Below are positions 20,995 through 49,222 of a DNA stretch of 64,000 nt, in pieces (position 1 is the stretch's first letter; each line of letters begins with the position of its first letter). The notes under the pieces are model-generated. The model was not told the DNA's origin and made no database searches. It saw only the letters and a program-made list of their open reading frames with translations. The stretch covers positions 64,001 to 128,000 of the forward strand of contig MHLM01000004.1 of NCBI GenBank assembly GCA_001821395.1, written 5' to 3'. The position numbers and the translations under genes were made by a program. This DNA comes from Candidatus Lloydbacteria bacterium RIFCSPHIGHO2_02_FULL_50_18. Lineage in GTDB: Bacteria > Patescibacteriota > Minisyncoccia > Phycocordibacterales > UBA6899.

Positions 20995-21672
20995 ATGATC
21001 TTTCCAACACTGAAGGGGCAAATGCCCGGTTACGTCGATCTCGATGAGTACGCGCGCGGATGGTTGTTGCGGAATGGCTATTGTCGCATCCGCTCAGGGG
21101 CGGTCGGGTACCCGAAGATCAGCCCGCTGCTTGATCCCACCATCTGTCAATTCATGGTCCTCGAGTGTCATGCGAAACTCGGCCTCGACTTTTCCTACGG
21201 CGGATGGCTCGAAGATCGTTCCGTTCTGTGGAGCGGCAGTTATCTTGATCTGGGCAGCAAGTACATTCACTTGGGACTCGACATCAATACGAAAGCCGGC
21301 ACGCCGATCGCGCTCGATATGCCGGGCGAGATCGTGCTCGTCGACAATGACCATCCGCTTGTCGGAGGCTGGGGGACCCGGGTCATGGTCAAGCTCGATG
21401 ATGCGCCGATCGTGCTTATCTACGGTCACTTGGCTCATGTGAGGCATGTGGTGGGTGCGACACTCAAGCGCGGTGATATCTTTGCCGCGGTCGGTCCTTC
21501 TTCTTCGAATGGTGCTTGGTACACGCACGCACACGTGCAGGCAATGACCTTGCAAGCGTATGAATGTTTCCTCGATAAGTCGCTCGAGCTCGACGGGTAC
21601 GGAAGGCATGATGACATTTCGCGGCTAGCGAGGTTGTTTCCCGATCCTATGCAATTCATCGAGCTAGGGTAG
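20995..21672 (+). CDS. M23 family metallopeptidase (LytM-like)
   Basis: HLGLDI (HxxxD) and YTHAHVQ (HxH) motifs. Confidence 0.7.
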   Translation: MIFPTLKGQMPGYVDLDEYARGWLLRNGYCRIRSGAVGYPKISPLLDPTICQFMVLECHAKLGLDFSYGGWLEDRSVLWSGSYLDLGSKYIHLGLDINTKAGTPIALDMPGEIVLVDNDHPLVGGWGTRVMVKLDDAPIVLIYGHLAHVRHVVGATLKRGDIFAAVGPSSSNGAWYTHAHVQAMTLQAYECFLDKSLELDGYGRHDDISRLARLFPDPMQFIELG

Positions 21673-22286: not shown

Positions 22287-23264
22287 ATGAACAACACATT
22301 GAAGATCGGCGGGTTAACGTTATTACTCATTCTCATAAGCGTGCTTTCATACGCGTTCTTTTCGCAACCCGAAACAATTACCCTTGCTCGGGAGGAAGCG
22401 ATAGATACGATCATCGGTGCGTATCCTGAATTAGCCGCGTACAAAGTAGTTTCGCTTCCACCAAGTTTCATAGAAGCAAAAAGGGCAGATGCGGGATGGG
22501 ATGTGGGATTTATTGAACTAGGAAGCGGAGTCCCCGGGGTACTGAGTGCAACGTGTTATCATGTTACAGACGCAAAAGCTGTTGTCTTGATCGGTGTATA
22601 TGCACAATTGAACGATAAGACTGCGGAGCGTATCGAGCTCACGACGTGCGAGCCGGTGTTCGCGGAGCAGACAGCCCCGGCGGCACCTATCACAGCCCCC
22701 GTGATTCCGCCAGTAACGCAAGATACTGTTTTGCCTTATGGCGATGTAACGCTTCGTCTGGGTCAGATCGCGACATTTAAGGATCTCTCCATGCGCCCGA
22801 TTGCTATCGAGGAAGATAGCCGTTGTCCCAATGATGTGCAGTGTATCCAGGCGGGGACGGTGCGCGTGAAGGTATCCGTCACCACAGGGGGAAGATCACG
22901 AGTGAGTATTCTTAAGCTCGGTGAGATCGTTGCGGCAGACAACGAAACAATATTGCTTGCCCACGTCCTGCCCGAGCAGAATTCCAAGATCACGGAAACC
23001 GATGCAGATTATCAGCTTCAGTTCACCGTGTTGCCGCAAGAACCCAAAGTTACCCCCTCCGTATTGGGTAAATGCTTCATCGGTGGTTGTTCGGGGCAAC
23101 TATGTACCGAGAGACCCGATGCCATCTCAACGTGCGAATACAACGCCGCATATGCATGTTATCAATCCGGGGTCTGCGAGCGACAGCCAAGCGGCACCTG
23201 TGGCTGGACGGAGACTCCGGAACTTGCCGCCTGCCTTCTGAATTCAGCGTCGGCGACATTATAA
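22287..23264 (+). CDS. Secreted protein with a C-terminal 8-Cys domain
   Basis: N-terminal signal anchor. C-terminal CFIGGCSGQLCTERPDAISTCEYNAAYACYQSGVCERQPSGTCGW. Confidence 0.45.
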   Translation: MNNTLKIGGLTLLLILISVLSYAFFSQPETITLAREEAIDTIIGAYPELAAYKVVSLPPSFIEAKRADAGWDVGFIELGSGVPGVLSATCYHVTDAKAVVLIGVYAQLNDKTAERIELTTCEPVFAEQTAPAAPITAPVIPPVTQDTVLPYGDVTLRLGQIATFKDLSMRPIAIEEDSRCPNDVQCIQAGTVRVKVSVTTGGRSRVSILKLGEIVAADNETILLAHVLPEQNSKITETDADYQLQFTVLPQEPKVTPSVLGKCFIGGCSGQLCTERPDAISTCEYNAAYACYQSGVCERQPSGTCGWTETPELAACLLNSASATL

Positions 23265-23859: not shown

Positions 23860-23959
23860 AGTGCAAAATAGATAAAGTCCGCCATGATCAAAGTTTGTTT
23901 TGATCGACCTATCGCGAAGGTGTCTCGTGTCTTCCGCTCAGGTAGTTTATACTTACTTC

Positions 23960-24856
23960 ATGCCCGTGTCCGTTAAGCATCATTTGATCGTCGTCGGTAT
24001 TTTGATGACGGTGGTCATCGCACTTTTGGGCGTGCTTGTCGTACTCACCAAGCAGCTCGGCTTACTAGAAAAAGAACCGTTGTTTCCTGCCATGGAATAC
24101 ATCAACGAAGAAGAGATCGTTGTCATTTCGCCAAGTGACGGTCAAAAAGAAGAGGTCGTCCTCCCCGTATCAAAGGTACTTTTTGAATACATCGAAGTTA
24201 CCGACGGATGCGGGCCGCATTTCGCAGGAACGTGTTTGAACGTCCGCTCCGGACCCGGAGAGGATTATCCTGTGGTGACGCAGCTTCGGACCGGCGTCGT
24301 GCTAAAAGTTGGGGGGAAGGTGGAGCGTGACGGACGCGTGTGGTATAAGATCGCGTTCAATGAATGGATCCGCTACCCTCTGCGTGTGGTGGGGGATTGG
24401 TATGTCTCTGCTGATTACGTGAACGCGCTCATGAATGAGGGTGATCGTGACCATTCGGACGGGCAAAATGGAACAAGTACGAAGCGCATCATCGTAGAGC
24501 GTTGGACGCAAAAACTGTACGCATACGAGGGTGAGGAATTATTCATGGAAGCAAAGATCTCTACTGGCGTTGAGCTCACGCCCACACCGCGGGGAACATT
24601 CACTGTTTTCAAAAAAACACCGAGCCGCTACATGCAGGGTCCTATTCCCGGTATTGCGGAAGAATACTACGATCTTCCCGGAGTGCCATGGAATCTCTAT
24701 TTCACCCATGATGGCGCGGTCATCCATGGGGCGTACTGGCATGACAATTTTGGACGCAGGTCGTCGCATGGTTGTGTAAATCTGCCGCCCGATCTGGCAA
24801 AAAAACTTTATCTTTGGGCTGATGTGGGGATGCAGGTGATTGTCCGAGATAAATAA
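23960..24856 (+). CDS. L,D-transpeptidase (YkuD domain) protein
   Basis: HGCVNL catalytic motif and a GTFTV segment. The start is ambiguous (23900 or 23960). Confidence 0.75.
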   Translation: MPVSVKHHLIVVGILMTVVIALLGVLVVLTKQLGLLEKEPLFPAMEYINEEEIVVISPSDGQKEEVVLPVSKVLFEYIEVTDGCGPHFAGTCLNVRSGPGEDYPVVTQLRTGVVLKVGGKVERDGRVWYKIAFNEWIRYPLRVVGDWYVSADYVNALMNEGDRDHSDGQNGTSTKRIIVERWTQKLYAYEGEELFMEAKISTGVELTPTPRGTFTVFKKTPSRYMQGPIPGIAEEYYDLPGVPWNLYFTHDGAVIHGAYWHDNFGRRSSHGCVNLPPDLAKKLYLWADVGMQVIVRDK

Positions 24857-24883: not shown

Positions 24884-25579
24884 TTGCGTTTGTGTGGTAG
24901 AACTCTCCGCATGATAATCAGTACCACCCTTTTCCTGAATTTTCTCATTGGCGCCTCCGTTTTGGCTTCCGGTGTTGAAGCAGAGCCATTTTTCGATATT
25001 TCTGGCCCGTCCTTCGTCGTTCCGACCGCGATGAGTTTCTCTGCTGTTCCTCTTGCTCCGCTTAATTTGAGCATTTCGGCGACGGTGCCGACCGTTCCAT
25101 TCTATTCCCAATTCGCGGACATTCATGAGGCGAAATGGCAGAAGGTTGGCTGCGGAGTGACTAGTCTTGCGATGATTATTGAATATTATCGCCCCGGGAC
25201 GGTCTCGGTGGATACATTGCTCCGAGAGGGTATCGCATCAGGTGCATATCTTTCGAATGCCGGATGGAAACATCGCGAGCTTGCCCTCTTAAGCGAGCGG
25301 TACGGTTTGGAAGGCAGGAGCTACGACTTTGCTCGTGAGACAAGAGTTGATGCATTTGCTCATCTTCAGGAATCATTGGACGTAGGCCCGGTCATTGCAT
25401 CGGTGCATTATAAGTTCGATCCGAAAAGCACGATCCCGCATCTCGTTGTCATCACAGGAATTGAGCGTGACCGCGTATACTACAATGATCCGGCCGGGCA
25501 CACTCCCGGTCAGTCGGTTGCTACCGATGATTTTCTTAAGAGTTGGAAAAAGAGATTTATTACCATACGGCCGGCATAA
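24884..25579 (+). CDS. Peptidase C39-like (papain-fold) domain protein, secreted
   Basis: VPFYSQ...KVGCGVTSLAMII Cys motif and a downstream His region. Confidence 0.55.
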   Translation: MRLCGRTLRMIISTTLFLNFLIGASVLASGVEAEPFFDISGPSFVVPTAMSFSAVPLAPLNLSISATVPTVPFYSQFADIHEAKWQKVGCGVTSLAMIIEYYRPGTVSVDTLLREGIASGAYLSNAGWKHRELALLSERYGLEGRSYDFARETRVDAFAHLQESLDVGPVIASVHYKFDPKSTIPHLVVITGIERDRVYYNDPAGHTPGQSVATDDFLKSWKKRFITIRPA

Positions 25580-25605
25580 GAAACACGGTTTGTGTCTATC
25601 AACGA

Positions 25606-26496
25606 TCACCGCACGGCATCAGTGAATACGACCAACCTCTCTGAATAGCTTAATTGTCCCGGATTCCAGGTGCCTTCACAGGTAATGATATTTAGATGTG
25701 CACCGCCATCTGCCGATACAAAAACAGTAGTAGCATCGGAATTTGGATCATAGAGACGACTCTCACGAACTGCGTATGTGAACGACTCTCCTCTGTCGTT
25801 AGTCACCGATAATCTGTCTCCCGCACGCAGCTCCCTTAGGTTCATGAAGACGCCCGGCTTCGTCAGCACTCCTCCGCGTATCTGGGCAACATGACCGGTC
25901 ATGACGGCGGTACCTATTTCTCCCGGTTGCGCACTTCCGGTGAACCATCCCACGTCGACAATGTTGTTTGGTATTTCCATTGCCCCGGCTTGTGTGAGAC
26001 CGTTGTGTTGAACATTTGCATCGACATTGAGCTTGGGGATATTGAGACGAATCGGTAATCCGCTATTGGTGTCGACCATCGGGATGGTTGTCGTTCCTGC
26101 AGTCGGTGCTGTTGTCGTCCCGACGATGATGTCCGGTATACGAATCACACTGATCGGAACTGCAGTGGTAGTGATATATAATTTTGCTCTCGAAATTGGG
26201 CCAAAAAAACCGACTGAAGGAGCAATGTCCATTGACGCCTGCCATTTCCCGAGCGCGGTCCTTGTGAGTGCTCCAAAGTAGCCAGTTGGGGTAGCAATGT
26301 TGAGAAATCCACCCGCAATCAAAAATTGTTGCAGTGCTGACACGTCACTCCCTCGAGCTCCCACCGTAAGGTTGCGCGTGAAGGTAAGTTCAGCAGCTGA
26401 GAAGGCAGAAGGTGCACTTTCCGCACTTGCATTACTTCCCAGCATTGAAGCAGCAAGCAGTAACGCGATAAGGTGTATTTTAGTTGATTGTCTCAT
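25606..26496 (-). CDS. Sortase-family transpeptidase with an N-terminal peptidoglycan-binding (PG_binding_1) domain
   Basis: LNIITCEG (TLxTC-like) plus the conserved His region. N-terminal RGSDVSALQQFL...GYFGALTRTAL. The start is ambiguous (26496 or 26568). Confidence 0.6.
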   Translation of the reverse strand: MRQSTKIHLIALLLAASMLGSNASAESAPSAFSAAELTFTRNLTVGARGSDVSALQQFLIAGGFLNIATPTGYFGALTRTALGKWQASMDIAPSVGFFGPISRAKLYITTTAVPISVIRIPDIIVGTTTAPTAGTTTIPMVDTNSGLPIRLNIPKLNVDANVQHNGLTQAGAMEIPNNIVDVGWFTGSAQPGEIGTAVMTGHVAQIRGGVLTKPGVFMNLRELRAGDRLSVTNDRGESFTYAVRESRLYDPNSDATTVFVSADGGAHLNIITCEGTWNPGQLSYSERLVVFTDAVR

Positions 26497-26512
26497 TGGG
26501 GTAGTATGCCAT

Positions 26513-26881
26513 TTATTCGCATGGAGCGAAATTGCAATCTGGAGGCAGGCGCAATGAGAATGAGCCATCCGGGCAACTTCTCGCGTCTGCGGTACACGTG
26601 ACGACGAGTCCTTCCGCCGTCGATGCCTTGGGCACGTCGGACACTCCGTTTGTTATCGCAAACGTAATCTGCTCATTGGGGCATCGATCAAATGTACAAT
26701 CGGGACCGGTGCGACCCACCGCGGATCCGTCAGGGCATATCTTTGCTTCAGCAGTGCAGGAACCAGCAGTTACACCAGTGCTGGGATACCATGGTAGTAT
26801 GAACGCGAAGATGAGGATGATGAGCGATACAATGATACCGACCTTACCGAGCACGATGACCTTCTTTTTCTCTAACTTCAT
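26513..26881 (-). CDS. Small membrane-anchored protein with two CxxxxxxCPDGS...PDCxFxxC repeats
   Basis: Internal duplication CTAEAKICPDGSAVGRTGPDCTFDRCP and CTADARSCPDGSFSLRLPPDCNFAPCE. Lies directly upstream of the sortase gene on the same strand. Confidence 0.45.
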   Translation of the reverse strand: MKLEKKKVIVLGKVGIIVSLIILIFAFILPWYPSTGVTAGSCTAEAKICPDGSAVGRTGPDCTFDRCPNEQITFAITNGVSDVPKASTAEGLVVTCTADARSCPDGSFSLRLPPDCNFAPCE

Positions 26882-26951
26882 TAGTATAGTATATGCCTCA
26901 CAAGCGAAAAATGCATCTTGAGAAGGTGCACCGCTTGCTCCATGAGAACCC

Positions 26952-27455
26952 ATGCGAGATGATATTTATTCCGCGTTAATGATCCTGCGACCCATGATAA
27001 TAAAAGAAAAATGGCGAGAGCATCCTTTGTATAAGCAGGGGAAAATAGAATTAGTGCCGACCGATTGGGTCTGGCAATACTTCGGGCGCGACGTCTCACC
27101 GGAGGCGGATCTGATGGACGGTACGCTCGTCTCCATGGATACGCTATGGGAAAATATTTGCGAAGAGGGATTGTATGATCCGCTCATCATGCGCATCGGG
27201 CTAGGGAATAAGAAGTTTCGTCTCGAGTCCGGTAATCACCGCATCCAAGTCTTTCATGAGCACGGAGTAGCGATGGTGCCCCTCACGGTTGAAGTGAGAG
27301 AAGCGTGCGGACCGGAGCTCCCCGATGTGATGACTGACGCGACGCACAATTTTGATGCTCCGGACGGATTTCTTATTTCAGTGATCACGGATGCACACAT
27401 GAAGCCAAGTGAAGTTTTTCAAGATATTAAAGATATGCAGAACAATAACTCATGA
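26952..27455 (+). CDS. ParB/Srx-fold nuclease-like domain protein
   Basis: LESGNHRIQV...GVAMVPLTV matches the DGHHR core of the ParB N-terminal domain. Confidence 0.5.
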   Translation: MRDDIYSALMILRPMIIKEKWREHPLYKQGKIELVPTDWVWQYFGRDVSPEADLMDGTLVSMDTLWENICEEGLYDPLIMRIGLGNKKFRLESGNHRIQVFHEHGVAMVPLTVEVREACGPELPDVMTDATHNFDAPDGFLISVITDAHMKPSEVFQDIKDMQNNNS

Positions 27456-29644: not shown

Positions 29645-29980
29645 ATGGCAGCAAAAAAAGTAGCAGCAAAAAAGGCAGTCGCTAAAAAAGCAGTAGCAAA
29701 AAAGGCGGTCGCAAAGAAACCTGCAGCAAAAAAGGTCAATTCCGCATTTATGAAACCAATGACGATCAGCGCCGAGCTTGCTCTTGTCGTCGGAAAAGGT
29801 CCGATGCCTCGTTCAGAGGTCGTGAAGAAGCTCTGGGTTTATATCAAGAAGCATGATCTTCAGGATGCAAAAAATAAGCGCAATATCAACGGCGATGCGG
29901 CATTGGTTGCGGTATTCGGCGGAAAGAAGACCGTCAACATGTTTGAAATGACGAAGCTTGTGTCGAAACATCTTTCATAA
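29645..29980 (+). CDS. SWIB/MDM2-domain protein with an N-terminal Lys/Ala-rich histone-H1-like tail
   Basis: AAKKAVAKK repeats followed by ...ELALVVGKGPMPRSEVVKKLWVYIKKHDLQDAKNKRNINGD...MFEMTKLVSKHL. Confidence 0.75.
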   Translation: MAAKKVAAKKAVAKKAVAKKAVAKKPAAKKVNSAFMKPMTISAELALVVGKGPMPRSEVVKKLWVYIKKHDLQDAKNKRNINGDAALVAVFGGKKTVNMFEMTKLVSKHLS

Positions 29981-45937: not shown

Positions 45938-48900
45938 ATGAATTATTTTTATTCCCTGATCTTTGCTGTTCTATTCGTCATCACACCCCTTGTTTCCTCC
46001 GCGTACGACGGAGCATTTCTTGTCCCGAGTTGGACAAATCCGCTTCCAACGGCAGTGTACGCATTTAGTACTAGCGTTATCGTCACGGGGAGTTGGCAAT
46101 TGCCGGCGGATTGGATCGGAAAAATTTATGTGTATCAGGATGCATTATTGGGTCCGGATGATTCACTGCTTACGCAGGGGACGCAAATGACCGACGTGGG
46201 CGGAAATAACGGTTATACAATAGATAATACGGGAGGGGCCACAACGAAGACCGGCACTTTCAGTTTTGATGTCGGAGCACAGCTGCCCGGTCTGCACAAC
46301 ATCCATCTCGAATTTTGGGGGGGTGAAGTCTGTGCTATCAATAAGGCGCTGAACGATTTGAACGGTACAAATTTCATTCCGTCATGTCCGATCACTGCGG
46401 ACAATGCGGCTTTTAATATTGTTTGGCCAGCTCGAAAATATACGGTTGGTAACCCCTTATTTCCAAGTATGACGGTTACTCCGAGTAGTGATCCCGCACT
46501 CAATTTTCTTAATGTCGAATTTGGTTCACCGCAGACCCTCACCTTTACTATTGGAAACACGGGGGGACAAACGCTCTCTGGGTCTATCTCAGGGATCACA
46601 AGTCCTTTTTCCTGTTCTCCATCGTGTAATTATGCCGTGAACCCTAATACGTCGCAGAATATCACTATTCAATACGTGCCACCTCCGGCACCGGATTCAT
46701 CCGATCAAACATTCGTCTTTAGTTGTGTCGGAGCATCCTTGGGGTGCGCGAAGGTTTCTGCCTCACTGCCCGTCGTCATTGTCGCTCAACCATCTGAATC
46801 GAGACACGTTATCGCAAATTCCGTCACGAATAGCGTTTCGCCAAACATTATTGTGACCCCTGCTTTGGTGAATTACGGTAGCCTCAACCTCGGCGTCCCG
46901 GTTGCTGACCGGCCATTTGTCGTGAAGAATACGGGCGGAGGATATCTCAATGGTGTGGTGTCCTTTAGCACACCTGAATATTCTTGCACCGGTCCATGTA
47001 GTTATAGCGTTTCGGCTGGCGGGCAAACGACCATTTGGGTTCATTATATTCCGTCCGTTGCCGGTACGTTCAATGATACTGCCACTTTTGGCGGTGGTCT
47101 GGGGCAGGTAGTAGCACTGAGTTCGGTGGTCAATGATAAACCGATTATTTTGGTCGGAACTACTCTTATAGATTTTTATGCAATTAACGGCAATAAACCG
47201 GTCAATGTCGGTTCTTGCAAGTCATATTCCTCGTGGGTGAAAAATATTGGCGCGAGTACACTCTCAGGGTCCGTCACGAATGTACCGCTCGCGACGCCAC
47301 CGATGAGTGATCCAACTGTTAATCCTCTTTTTACGTGCACGGCGGGGTGTACCTATAATAATTTGACGAACGGTCAATGGCAATGGTTCACGATCCAGTA
47401 TTGCCCTACCATTAATGGAACGGAAGCGGGGACAGCGATACTCACAAATGCATTGAACGCACCAAATACTGCAACAATTAATCTCACAGGCAGAGGGAAC
47501 ACACAGCCAATAGGAACACTTAGTTCGTCGCTCATTTTTGGAAATGTGCTCATCAATACCACTAAACAAATCACGTTTACTATCATGAATACCGGCGTTG
47601 GTGTGTTGAGCGGGTCCGTTGGTGCTTTGCCGGTTCAATTTGCTTGTGATTTGGGTTGCACCTACAATATTCCCGCCGGGGGAAGCGCATCCGTAACGCT
47701 TTCATTTAATCCGCTCCTCGTTCAATCCTATGGGGGGACCGTTAATTTTTCGGGGATTGGAGATTTTTCAGTGAGTGGGTCCGGAGTACAACCCATCTTT
47801 CAGGCGAGCTGGGATAATTGGCCTTATTACCATTCAAATAAGTGCCCCGGAGCAACATGTCTCGATCCGGAGATCAAGGATTATGACATTGGGGCAACTA
47901 CATTCACCGGGAATCTGAATTTAGCTGTTCAGTATAAAAACTTTTATCTTTATGCAATGAATAAGGGTACCGGGGCAAATATTACCTATTCATTTCCGAA
48001 TACGGCGCATTTTAAATGTATCGCCGTATATTACACCGGTACGGTTGGTGCCGGTGGTTGCAGTGGTACGCTGTTACCGTTCTTGTCAGCAAGTTATCAG
48101 TACCTATTCCGCCCAACCTATCAGTTCCAACCGGATGCGGCAGGGGACTTCAGCGAACCGCTTACGATTACCTATGATTACGGATTTGGACCGCAGACAA
48201 AGACCGTGAACCTCGTCGGACATTCCATCAGCGCCCCATTCCTTGATGTTTCTCCGACTGGGATACGCACGATCGTTCCGAATACGCCCGTGGGAACAAA
48301 CCCCTCACCGAAGGCAGTCTACACCGTGACAAATCTCGGAGTCGGTCCAATGGATTATAGTGTAACGGGGATCCCCGTTGGAAGTCCTTTTTCCTGCATC
48401 ACGAATTGTAGTATGGTCGGTCTAATGCCGAACACCCCTGTTACTGTTGAGTTTGAGTTCACTCCGACAGATGCCCTGACGACCATTATCTCACCGTGGT
48501 TCAACTCCACCGGCGGAAATCTGCAAAGAACCATCAAGGGAACGGGAAGCGTCAGTCCGGTTACTGGCTTGGTTCCACCTTCAATTTTTTATCCTGATAC
48601 AAACATGGGGCAGTTCACCAATCGCACGGTCAGAGTCACAAACTCCGGACTCGGAACACTCTCCGGCGTTGTTACTCCCGTTGCCCCATCAGGTCTCGAT
48701 TTTTTCTGTATCACGAATTGCGGCTATTCACTCACTGCGGGTCAAAGCACCGATAGTGTGAGCGATCCCGTTATCCAGTTTCGTCCGATGCAAACGGGTC
48801 CGTTGAATGCAACGATAGATTTTTCCGGAGGATCAAACGGTGTTCAGTCGGTCTCGGTATTTGGCACTGCTATCTTTGCGCCCATCATTGACATTCGCGG

Positions 48901-49222
48901 AGCAGACACAAATTTTGGCACGGTCGTGATCACCAAGTATAAAGATCGCGTTTTCACGGTAAAAAATTCAGGAACCTCAGATCTCGGAAGTGGAACATTC
49001 TCTGTCACGGGTCCTTTTTCCTGCGTCGACCCCGTCGACCCAATCGATGGTCTTTGTCACTATTCCCTAAATGGAGGCACGGAGGTGACTATCACCATTC
49101 GGTTTAGCCCTATGACGGTCGGTCCGGCGAGTGGCGCCGTATCCCTTTCGGGAGTACCGATCGCTCGATTTTTCGTGAATGGTCAAGGTGGTCAACCTGT
49201 GTTCATTTTCAGAGAGATCTGA
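45938..49222 (+). CDS. Giant secreted protein (1094 aa) of about 8 tandem Ig-like repeats (choice-of-anchor-D/ASH-like)
   Basis: Signal peptide. A recurring unit of about 100 aa: V.N.G...L.G.V....F.C...C.Y.L..G.S..V...F.P...G. Confidence 0.7.
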   Translation: MNYFYSLIFAVLFVITPLVSSAYDGAFLVPSWTNPLPTAVYAFSTSVIVTGSWQLPADWIGKIYVYQDALLGPDDSLLTQGTQMTDVGGNNGYTIDNTGGATTKTGTFSFDVGAQLPGLHNIHLEFWGGEVCAINKALNDLNGTNFIPSCPITADNAAFNIVWPARKYTVGNPLFPSMTVTPSSDPALNFLNVEFGSPQTLTFTIGNTGGQTLSGSISGITSPFSCSPSCNYAVNPNTSQNITIQYVPPPAPDSSDQTFVFSCVGASLGCAKVSASLPVVIVAQPSESRHVIANSVTNSVSPNIIVTPALVNYGSLNLGVPVADRPFVVKNTGGGYLNGVVSFSTPEYSCTGPCSYSVSAGGQTTIWVHYIPSVAGTFNDTATFGGGLGQVVALSSVVNDKPIILVGTTLIDFYAINGNKPVNVGSCKSYSSWVKNIGASTLSGSVTNVPLATPPMSDPTVNPLFTCTAGCTYNNLTNGQWQWFTIQYCPTINGTEAGTAILTNALNAPNTATINLTGRGNTQPIGTLSSSLIFGNVLINTTKQITFTIMNTGVGVLSGSVGALPVQFACDLGCTYNIPAGGSASVTLSFNPLLVQSYGGTVNFSGIGDFSVSGSGVQPIFQASWDNWPYYHSNKCPGATCLDPEIKDYDIGATTFTGNLNLAVQYKNFYLYAMNKGTGANITYSFPNTAHFKCIAVYYTGTVGAGGCSGTLLPFLSASYQYLFRPTYQFQPDAAGDFSEPLTITYDYGFGPQTKTVNLVGHSISAPFLDVSPTGIRTIVPNTPVGTNPSPKAVYTVTNLGVGPMDYSVTGIPVGSPFSCITNCSMVGLMPNTPVTVEFEFTPTDALTTIISPWFNSTGGNLQRTIKGTGSVSPVTGLVPPSIFYPDTNMGQFTNRTVRVTNSGLGTLSGVVTPVAPSGLDFFCITNCGYSLTAGQSTDSVSDPVIQFRPMQTGPLNATIDFSGGSNGVQSVSVFGTAIFAPIIDIRGADTNFGTVVITKYKDRVFTVKNSGTSDLGSGTFSVTGPFSCVDPVDPIDGLCHYSLNGGTEVTITIRFSPMTVGPASGAVSLSGVPIARFFVNGQGGQPVFIFREI

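Follow-up and report, generated by a model that had tools for sequence, protein, structure and literature searches.

A class-F-like sortase with an N-terminal peptidoglycan-binding domain in Candidatus Lloydbacteria and its probably unrelated Cys-rich neighbour

Introduction

Two genes lie next to each other on the minus strand of a Candidatus Lloydbacteria genome, one encoding a sortase with a peptidoglycan-binding domain and the other a small Cys-rich membrane protein. Do they work together? A preliminary description of the locus, made from the sequence alone, had proposed that they might form a non-canonical sortase-substrate or pilin-like system. We examined the pair within the surrounding 64,000-nt stretch of contig MHLM01000004.1 (hereafter the window) and compared it with related sortase loci. 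The results favour the reading that the two genes are separate things that have become adjacent by chance in this genome, the sortase being a wall-docked, class-F-like enzyme; we consider this reading likely.

Results

A sortase with a peptidoglycan-binding domain

The sortase gene (25606..26496, minus strand; stop codon 25606-25608) was identified from the list of open reading frames and from Pfam and NCBIfam matches. The longest open reading frame spans 25606-26568; the start ATG at 26496, giving a 296-aa protein that begins MRQSTK, was picked from an alignment with 21 homologues. A protein from Candidatus Lloydbacteria (P0001) is 100% identical to it. The N-terminus (MRQSTKIHLIALLLAASMLGSNASA; 26422..26496, minus strand) reads as a predicted cleavable Sec signal peptide, with a 13-residue hydrophobic core (h-region) followed by N-A-S-A. 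The same n/h/c pattern runs through the family of PG-domain sortases, whose hydrophobic cores of about 13-15 residues are followed by AxA. We infer from this pattern that the 296-aa protein is exported by Sec and that its signal peptide is removed. A membrane anchor is typical of characterised sortases, though it is not strictly defining.

Behind the signal peptide come a PG_binding_1 domain (residues 48-93; 26218..26355, minus strand; Pfam PF01471, E 3.6e-7, 30.7 bits against a gathering cutoff of 23), a Thr-rich linker (residues 94-150; 26047..26217, minus strand) and a sortase catalytic domain (residues 151-293; 25618..26046, minus strand; Pfam PF04203, E 1.1e-21, 77.3 bits against a cutoff of 26.6). 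Both domains score above their Pfam cutoffs and had been called correctly before. The linker varies in length among homologues, falls in a gap-rich region of the alignment and has an AF2 pLDDT below 50; the AF2 model of the sortase, built on a 22-sequence alignment, has a mean pLDDT of 49.5, too poor for a fold search. The PF04203 match spans profile positions 1-123 of 125, which places the domain in the sortase superfamily (MEROPS C60). The family profile also matches the PG-binding domains of solved endolysins and of the ErfK/YbiS L,D-transpeptidase 4lpq (structures 5nm7, 4lpq and 7rum), and the sortase is predicted to dock non-covalently to murein through PG_binding_1.

The catalytic codons, checked on the translation, are those of His202 (25891-25893), Cys273 (25678-25680) and Arg287 (25636-25638), all on the minus strand. 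His202 (TGH), Cys273 (IITCEG) and Arg287 (SERLVVF) are invariant in 22 of 22 aligned sequences. In alignments with the solved sortases 8t28 and 4d70, the TGH and ITCE motifs fall opposite TGH/AGH and VTCT; the PDB alignments end before the Arg, and Arg287, 14 residues past Cys273, was assigned by position. Absence of the Cys/His/Arg triad had been named at the outset as an observation that would speak against the proposed system. The triad is intact, so this objection falls away.

The fusion of PG_binding_1 to a sortase domain had been regarded as unusual. It is instead the common form in Patescibacteria: both Pfam domains are present in 113 of the 120 best homologues, and every named one comes from Patescibacteria. 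The 296-aa sortase is a member of an orthologous group found widely in this phylum and amounts to a modest architectural variation on a known kind of enzyme. The only close relative, with a sortase 85% identical, lies on a contig (L046) that stops 21 nt upstream of the sortase, and a metagenome scan returned no relative above 63% identity. A literature search on sortases with PG-binding domains found nothing relevant.

Likeness to class F sortases

The best-scoring sortase class, by a wide margin, was class F (NCBIfam NF033748, E 5.5e-30), followed by class D with 30 bits. The class F score of 104 bits (NF033748/IPR042001) lies below the curated cutoff of 166, and we therefore filed the protein as class-F-like and not as a member of the class. 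Class F includes Cutibacterium acnes SrtF and the Streptomyces and Actinoplanes SrtF1-4. C. acnes SrtF has an N-terminal membrane anchor, whereas the window sortase has a signal peptide and PG_binding_1. Class F sortases of Actinomycetota are 30-38% identical to the window catalytic domain, and the motifs GWFTGSxxPG and (I/L)ITC(E/G)G are common to both. The window sortase and its Patescibacteria homologues keep the canonical Arg, whereas all 12 aligned Actinomycetota relatives have Asn there, a replacement of the catalytic Arg that has been reported for actinobacterial class F (PMC8703055). C. acnes SrtF recognises LPXTG (PMC8225981), in agreement with the (L/F)PxTG proteins that are coupled to the Patescibacteria paralogues described below.

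Paralogous sortases, substrates and neighbouring wall enzymes

Besides the architecture of the window protein (T2), Patescibacteria have paralogous sortases of two kinds, T1 (TM-sortase, about 200-230 aa) and T3 (TM-sortase-PG_binding_1-LPxTG-like-TM, about 400 aa). Their catalytic domains are 43-53% identical to that of the window T2 sortase and keep the Arg, and T3 also has PG_binding_1. However, T1 and T3 are anchored by hydrophobic N-termini and lie inside LPxTG operons, whereas the window T2 sortase has an N-terminal PG domain, a signal peptide and no linked substrate. In the PG-less paralogues the anchors are about 17-20 or more residues long and have no AxA-like site. These membrane-anchored proteins are encoded 4-283 nt downstream of co-oriented genes for (L/F)P(N/D/S/K)TG proteins with a TM segment and a KR tail in 38 of 56 loci; among the paralogue loci whose upstream sequence extends for 1.5 kb or more, only 3 are without an (L/F)PxTG-type gene. 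Ice_binding, DUF7507/DUF11, SpaA-like and Gram_pos_anchor domains are found in the linked proteins.

An (L/F)PxTG gene lies upstream in only one of 36 T2 orthologues (L074, with an LPNTG gene). The window T2 gene is stand-alone, like that of a housekeeping sortase, and about 100 kb of the source genome (the window and loci L050 and L052) yielded no protein with a sorting signal. Tail-anchored proteins with 'LAKTTQESA' repeats beside the sortase in three loci (L011, L013 and L014) were considered as substrates and rejected, as they have no N-terminal signal peptide. By analogy with the paralogues, the T2 sortase probably acts on LPxTG proteins encoded elsewhere.

It is also conceivable, if rather unlikely, that the PG_binding_1-sortase sorts no proteins at all and cross-links or trims stem peptides in the manner of PG_binding_1-YkuD L,D-transpeptidases. 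In the latter enzymes (YkuD/ErfK, PDB 4lpq), the same PG-binding three-helix domain stands ahead of a Cys transpeptidase domain, as in the window sortase, but the catalytic fold and family differ (YkuD PF03734 versus Sortase PF04203) and they act on the stem peptide of murein itself instead of a sorting signal in a protein. PG_binding_1 is characteristic of enzymes that act on murein, as the profile matches to 4lpq and to endolysins illustrate, and the apparent export of the sortase without a membrane anchor, together with the near absence of adjoining LPxTG genes, would suit an enzyme of this kind. Furthermore, no physiological role is known for the class F sortases of actinobacteria (PMC13251363).

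Wall-enzyme neighbours, which would also suit a murein-acting enzyme, are frequent. The window has genes for an M23 peptidase (20995-21672), a YkuD+SH3_3 protein (23900-24856; 750 nt from the sortase) and a C39_2-like protein (24884-25579), and M23 peptidases are encoded directly upstream of the sortase in 4 of 18 loci. All three window genes were confirmed, and all lie on the plus strand, opposite to the sortase. The run of cell-wall enzymes seen in the preliminary description is only partly wall-related: the three enzymes stand, with a cytoplasmic deaminase and a Heavy_Cys protein interspersed among them, and all are convergent with the sortase.

The sortase itself argues for protein sorting and against an action on murein alone. 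Its catalytic domain retains the full His-Cys-Arg triad and a 43-53% identity to LPxTG-coupled paralogues, and the L074 orthologue sits after an LPNTG gene. We know of no sortase-fold enzyme that acts on murein alone. The lack of a linked substrate is what a housekeeping sortase would show, since such sortases are normally unlinked to their own substrates (PMC8225981).

The 122-aa protein and its Cys module

The gene next to the sortase (26513..26881, minus strand; stop codon 26513-26515) was read from the open reading frame and its translation and encodes a 122-aa protein. An N-terminal transmembrane anchor (residues 5-28; 26798..26869, minus strand) was modelled by AF2 as a helix with a pLDDT of about 90. 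Two Cys modules were detected by regular expression and by a module HMM: module 1, CTAEAKICPDGSAVGRTGPDCTFDRC (26681..26758, minus strand; 55.1 bits, E 3.8e-15; AF2 pLDDT 85-89), and module 2, CTADARSCPDGSFSLRLPPDCNFAPC (26519..26596, minus strand; 43.1 bits, E 2.2e-11; AF2 pLDDT 87-92). Both have the form C-x6-C-PDGS-x8-C-x4-C, and the AF2 model of the protein (mean pLDDT 76) contains only the TM helix and two small three-stranded modules. The protein is type-II membrane-anchored and displays two copies of a 28-residue, four-Cys module. Its architecture was as previously described, with two repeats, an N-terminal anchor and no C-terminal LPXTG. The term 'near-identical' overstated the likeness of the repeats: modules 1 and 2 have 15 of 28 residues and 45 of 84 nt in common, and a DNA repeat search inside the gene found none. 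Module 2 deviates from the family consensus at three positions (V15 to S, G16 to L and E23 to N). The conserved Ala-Cys at the module start was considered as a lipoprotein or signal-peptidase site and rejected because x-A-C-T also precedes internal repeats and the Ala-Cys lies 10-15 residues beyond the hydrophobic segment.

The C-terminus ends in SLRLPPDCNFAPCE (...PPDCNFAPCE), with no LPXTG, hydrophobic segment or basic tail, and gave no Gram_pos_anchor match. A search for features of sortase-assembled pilins found no Pfam match, no Ig-like or SpaA-type domain and no sorting signal. A type IV pilin class III leader (G/(F,M)xxxE) could not be read at the N-terminus, MKLEKKKVIVLGKVGIIVSL... The 122-aa protein is very probably neither a sortase substrate nor a pilin; our guess is that it probably serves as a membrane-proximal spacer or a binding unit.

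The protein has 388 homologues. An HMM was built from 471 distinct modules with the consensus C-x6-C-P-D-G-[ST]-x-V-x-R-x-x-P-x-C-x-F-x-x-C, the four Cys being in register, and both window modules satisfy it, module 2 without the consensus Val. The module matches 4119 cluster representatives, diatom and archaeal proteins included, with up to about 10 copies per protein, and is fused to Gmad2, DUF333, Kazal, META and other domains; in Patescibacteria it typically lies about 10 residues after an N-terminal TM segment. It is a promiscuous extracellular repeat, found in thousands of unrelated secreted or anchored proteins. The 28-residue module had no match to any Pfam or NCBIfam model and none among solved folds, and a literature search on its motif (CPDGS, GPNCEF and similar) found nothing relevant. 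Like small disulfide-rich extracellular repeats of the EGF-like, TSP and Kazal kind, it is short and extracytoplasmic with four invariant Cys, is found alone or in arrays of up to about 10 copies, and combines with many other domains in bacteria, archaea and a diatom; the resemblance is meant as an analogy. The module is probably disulfide-stabilised, and genes for MdbA-like and VKOR disulfide machinery occur in CPR genomes (PMC6744442).

Association of the two genes

The stop codon of the small gene is separated from the sortase ATG by 16 nt, and the two genes are co-oriented on the minus strand; they are therefore probably co-transcribed. A promoter and terminator scan of 25400-27200 found no promoter-like site, and its results were no better than those from shuffled sequences; the one terminator-like hairpin, on the plus strand inside the C39 gene, likewise scored no better than shuffles. 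On the pairing suggested in the preliminary description, the 122-aa protein would be a non-canonical substrate or a pilin-like subunit; it might also be a membrane adaptor that recruits the anchor-less sortase. The common strand and short gap suggest one transcript, both products are extracytoplasmic, and the small protein has the membrane anchor that the sortase lacks. We nevertheless hold this pairing to be very unlikely, since it is missing from 97 of 98 related sortase loci. Scanning 734 kb around these loci (the window and flanks included) with the module HMM revealed modules only in the window and in L018, where the module gene is on the opposite strand. By regular expression, a module gene turned up in 1 of 18 genome loci and in none of 80 metagenome loci, which the HMM confirmed. 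The small protein is thus not conserved beside sortase genes, the second outcome that had been named beforehand as speaking against the proposal.

Furthermore, the gene contexts examined for the closest homologues of the 122-aa protein contained no sortase, the protein has no C-terminal sorting signal, SpaA/pilin domain or type IV pilin leader, and its module is promiscuous, occurring even in eukaryotic proteins. The lack of conservation largely rules out the proposed pair. Sortase-substrate operons do occur in the clade, but with (L/F)PxTG proteins and a PG-less paralogous sortase. There may be a lineage-specific functional link between the sortase and the 122-aa protein.

Discussion

The two genes are best regarded as separate neighbours, and the sortase as a class-F-like enzyme that would work in the wall. 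In the mechanism that we propose, the 296-aa protein would be exported by Sec, lose its signal peptide and dock to murein through PG_binding_1. Following the established sortase mechanism and the operon partners of the paralogues, Cys273 would cleave (L/F)PxTG sorting signals between Thr and Gly, and a peptidoglycan amine would then resolve the acyl-enzyme; genes for the substrates would lie in other parts of the genome. That the protein is instead an inactive or decayed sortase-like wall protein with a meaningless adjacency is hardly credible: its class F score falls short of the curated cutoff (104 versus 166 bits), but a full-length identity of 50-85% in more than 100 cluster representatives indicates strong purifying conservation, and 62 alignment columns, the triad among them, are invariant.

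In Corynebacterium diphtheriae, which has SrtF together with SrtA-E, pilins are polymerised by a pilus-specific sortase and anchored to the wall by a housekeeping sortase (PMC8225981). The likeness of the putative division of labour in Patescibacteria lies in the stand-alone window sortase (an upstream (L/F)PxTG gene in 1 of 36 orthologues) and in a paralogue encoded directly after LPxTG proteins with SpaA-like domains. The Patescibacteria candidate for the housekeeping role differs in that it is predicted to be soluble and docked to the wall, with no membrane anchor. A tentative reading, to which we give a rather low chance, has two parts. Patescibacteria might run a two-sortase relay in which T1 processes or polymerises LPxTG proteins (Ice_binding, SpaA-like) and a second enzyme, situated in the wall and not in the membrane, completes their attachment directly to mature peptidoglycan; this would be the murein-docked T2, or T3 with its own LPxTG-like tail. 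Apart from the relay, the CPDGS module would represent an extracellular domain family, so far undescribed, that spans bacteria, archaea and a diatom. Such a relay, if true, would involve a topology that has been described for none of the characterised sortase classes.

The suggested sortase-substrate pair is not worth pursuing, and substrates are better sought among (L/F)PxTG proteins. The Cys module merits a family model of its own, but nothing ties it to sortases. A soluble, self-targeting sortase could also serve as a ligation tool. Patescibacteria are ultra-small, host-dependent bacteria, and sortases, which over half of CPR genomes contain (PMC6744442), bear on how their envelope is built and decorated. 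If the common Patescibacteria sortase is exported and murein-docked, its workplace would differ from that of all studied sortases, and so would the site at which surface adhesins are attached.

Sortase gene, domain fusion and N-terminus

The adjacency of the two genes is probably incidental, bringing together a lineage-typical, class-F-like sortase, predicted to be exported and murein-docked, and a small anchored protein built of a promiscuous Cys repeat. The sortase ORF (25606-26568, minus strand) matched the Pfam models PG_binding_1 (30.7 bits, cutoff 23) and Sortase (77.3 bits, cutoff 26.6), and the small gene (26513-26881) lies upstream on the same strand, so both genes and their domains are as described previously. 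Alignment with 21 homologues placed the true sortase start at the ATG at 26496, giving 296 aa; with this start the two genes no longer appear to overlap and are separated by 16 nt. Each of the two proteins matches a database entry at 100% identity (locus tags A2845_01600 and A2845_01605), and the contig is also present in assembly GCA_001818945.1. The public start-codon calls look wrong for both. Entry P0001 for the sortase (279 aa) begins at Met18, which removes most of the signal peptide (26445-26496), and the small-protein entry P0121 (146 aa) starts at ATG 26953, 24 codons upstream of the putative MKLEKKK start used here (26882-26953).

The fusion had been considered unusual, but it is not so in Patescibacteria. 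Both Pfam domains were found with full-length coverage in 113 of the best 120 matches (of 421 with E <= 1e-3). The named homologues among these 120 are all Patescibacteria (Lloyd-, Jorgensen-, Campbell-, Yonath- and Wolfebacteria, Minisyncoccia, Paceibacterota), and many are already labelled 'sortase' by NCBI. Sortases in general have been reported for more than half of CPR genomes (PMC6744442). The window architecture, T2 of three Patescibacteria sortase architectures (T1-T3), is already annotated in databases; a literature search for the PG-binding-domain form found no paper describing it. Some T2 homologues (P0025, P0026, P0039, P0044 and P0057; columns ~180-240 of the 22-sequence alignment) have, between PG_binding_1 and the catalytic domain, a linker with one or two additional C(T/S)SxVGFSxxTGxxC elements; these are missing from the window protein.

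T2 N-termini have, family-wide, MKxxNK followed by a hydrophobic core of ~13-15 residues and (S/A)x(A/G). Paralogues lacking the PG domain have hydrophobic segments of ~17-20 or more residues and no (S/A)x(A/G)-type site. The T2 N-terminus looks like a cleavable Sec signal, not a membrane anchor, and this signal-like character is one real point of difference from characterised sortases.

Neighbourhood and likely substrates

The wall-remodelling run reported around the pair stands in part. Genes for M23 (20995-21672), YkuD+SH3_3 (23900-24856) and C39_2-like (24884-25579) proteins were confirmed by domain search, but they are interleaved with genes for a cytosine/tRNA-type deaminase and a Heavy_Cys protein, and all are on the plus strand, opposite to the sortase. 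The Heavy_Cys gene (22287-23264) codes for an anchored protein of 325 aa that has eight cysteines in its C-terminal domain (TIGR04289/TIGR04292; PF27854 in the closest relative, L046, where the protein is kept) and contains a DSRCPNDVQCIQAG motif; in protein P0128 this motif follows CPDGS modules. Two further proteins were noticed elsewhere in the window. In one, of 111 aa (29645-29980), an N-terminus rich in Lys and Ala and resembling histone H1 (AKKAVAKK repeats) is fused to a SWIB/MDM2 domain; the other, of 1094 aa (45938-49222), is secreted, contains several Ig domains of the ASH/HYDIN/Cep192-like kind and lacks a wall-anchoring signal.

An all-against-all comparison of flanking ORFs revealed no gene family conserved beside T2 sortases; wall enzymes are loosely favoured among their neighbours. 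M23 peptidase genes lie directly upstream and divergent in 4 of 18 genome loci (L003:2464-3309, L007:3938-5326, L010:5141-5977 and L015:2163-3551; gap 24-675 nt), two of the four peptidases having tandem PG_binding_1 domains; the window M23 gene is ~4 kb from the sortase. M14-like carboxypeptidases are apparent from motifs alone downstream of the T2 sortase in L002 and L004. Tail-anchored 'LAKTTQESA'-type repeat proteins without a signal peptide adjoin the sortase in three loci (L011:4195-5001, L013:5490-5816, L014:5490-5816).

T1 sortases (TM anchor plus sortase, ~200-230 aa, no PG domain) are 43-53% identical to the window catalytic domain. In 38 of 56 T1 loci, the sortase gene is preceded at a distance of 4-283 nt by a co-oriented gene whose product has a C-terminal (L/F)P(N/D/S/K)TG motif, then a hydrophobic stretch and a basic tail; only three T1 loci with >=1.5 kb of upstream sequence lack such a gene. 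The encoded proteins carry Ice_binding (PF11999), DUF7507/DUF11 and SpaA-like prealbumin-fold domains, with one Gram_pos_anchor match. The conserved two-gene operon (noted in L080, L085-L090, L092, L094-L099, L101, L103, L104, L107-L110, L112, L113, L117-L119, L121, L122, L125-L129, L132, L133 and L012) may represent a Patescibacteria adhesin or pilus system resembling those of Gram-positive bacteria. T2 sortases (signal peptide, PG_binding_1, linker, sortase domain) stand alone, with an upstream LPNTG gene in 1 of 36 orthologues (L074), 32 of which have >=1.1 kb of upstream sequence. In T3 proteins (~400 aa), a TM anchor, the sortase domain and PG_binding_1 are followed by an LP(N/Y)(T/A)G motif of their own and, after a ~30-aa spacer, by another TM segment, often with a KR tail, so that the sortase itself ends in a sorting-signal-like tail; this domain make-up was confirmed by Pfam in L076 only. 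Their genes are located within LPxTG operons (L076:3242-4435, L092:3749-4981, L109:2525-3727, L120:30-1232 and, for a 314-aa form, L093:5-949).

That the window enzyme acts on murein rather than sorting proteins is an unlikely reading. Considering its homology to T1-type sortases, its substrates would most likely be (L/F)PxTG proteins encoded elsewhere. No sorting signal was found in the window plus a 10-kb extension on each side (~100 kb). Housekeeping sortases likewise have substrates encoded elsewhere (PMC8225981). Ice_binding surface proteins without an LPxTG signal occur near two T2 sortases (L013:8336-9808, L018:2725-4380), and the L013 protein instead ends in a weak, below-threshold PG_binding_1-like match, which suggests that covalent and non-covalent wall anchoring are interchangeable among such proteins.

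The small protein as a proposed partner

Translation and the AF2 model bore out the N-terminal anchor (helix residues 5-28, pLDDT ~90), the two Cys modules (pLDDT 85-92) and the missing C-terminal LPXTG of the 122-aa protein. Both modules read C-x6-C-PDGS-x8-C-x4-C; they agree at 15 of 28 amino-acid positions (45 of 84 nt), and a search for repeats in the gene's DNA found none, so 'near-identical' was too strong. The protein has no C-terminal sorting motif, hydrophobic segment or basic tail, matches no Pfam pilin domain and shows no leader of the type IV pilin kind in its sequence.

Among 18 Patescibacteria genome loci with orthologous sortases (+/-6 kb), a module ORF occurs only in L018, 202 nt downstream of the sortase on the opposite strand, and none occurs in 80 metagenome sortase loci (431 kb). 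An HMM of 471 distinct modules, searched against six-frame translations of 734 kb (window, flanks and all 98 loci), matched the window small gene (55 and 43 bits) and L018, and nothing else. The loci are partly duplicates of one another and amount to fewer than 98 independent genomes, but the lack of pairing across them is unambiguous. Neighbourhoods of the small protein's nearest homologues, P0127 and P0124, contain no sortase. In the only close relative, L046 (sortase 85% identical), the genes downstream are syntenic with the window (C39_2, YkuD+SH3_3, deaminase, Heavy_Cys), and the contig breaks off 21 nt upstream of the sortase. The two genes are likely co-transcribed in the window genome. 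As the pairing is missing from the sampled loci, the homologue contexts and the flanking families, the non-canonical sortase-substrate or pilin-like pair of the preliminary description, for which a lack of conservation beside sortase genes had been named in advance as refuting, is refuted, and a functional partnership of any kind is very doubtful.

Catalytic residues and class

His202 (TGH), Cys273 (IITCEG) and Arg287 (SERLVVF) are invariant in the 22-sequence alignment, and the His and Cys match catalytic residues of the solved sortases 8t28 (class C) and 4d70. The triad, whose absence had been named in advance as refuting, is therefore present, and that the enzyme is an inactive relic is extremely improbable. 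Class F is the closest NCBIfam class (104 bits, E 5.5e-30, below the curated cutoff of 166; every other class <=30 bits). Relatives from Actinomycetota genomes (30-38% identity) have Asn in the Arg287 column, as published for class F sortases (PMC8703055), whereas the window enzyme retains Arg; we therefore regard it as class-F-like but outside class F itself. No physiological role is established for class F enzymes; in Actinoplanes a quadruple deletion was without phenotype (PMC13251363). C. acnes SrtF cleaves LPXTG (PMC8225981).

The CPDGS module and wider meaning

The 28-residue module has the consensus A-C-T-x-[DE]-A-K-x-C-P-D-G-S-x-V-G-R-x-G-P-x-C-E-F-A-x-C-P, with the four Cys, Gly and Arg conserved at 100%, Phe at 99% and Val at 98% in the 471-module set. 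Neither Pfam nor NCBIfam has a model for it, and no solved structure compared was similar. Among 1.84 billion cluster representatives searched, 4119 proteins matched it (E <= 1e-3), with up to ~10 copies per protein; it forms arrays of up to ~10 in the diatom Seminavis robusta (P0243, P0246, P0247) and is also present in an archaeal MAG (P0176); P0241 and P0242 are further module-bearing entries. Some of these proteins are lipoproteins, and at least one match is in a Gram-negative-like context. In Patescibacteria a single module usually lies ~10 residues after an N-terminal TM segment and precedes a variable domain (e.g., Gmad2, DUF333, Kazal-like, PKD, Heavy_Cys, GerM). We favour two disulfides over a metal site, given that the module lies outside the cytoplasm, its Cys quartet is invariant, eukaryotes have secreted homologues and CPR genomes encode MdbA/VKOR machinery (PMC6744442). 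The module is probably a disulfide-stabilised, membrane-proximal spacer or binding unit, and any ligand can be suggested only tentatively.

The remaining value of the locus is twofold. It draws attention to a Cys-repeat family without a curated model that spans bacteria, archaea and a diatom, and to the topology of Patescibacteria sortases, which are predicted to be wall-resident, with the T3 form as indirect support.
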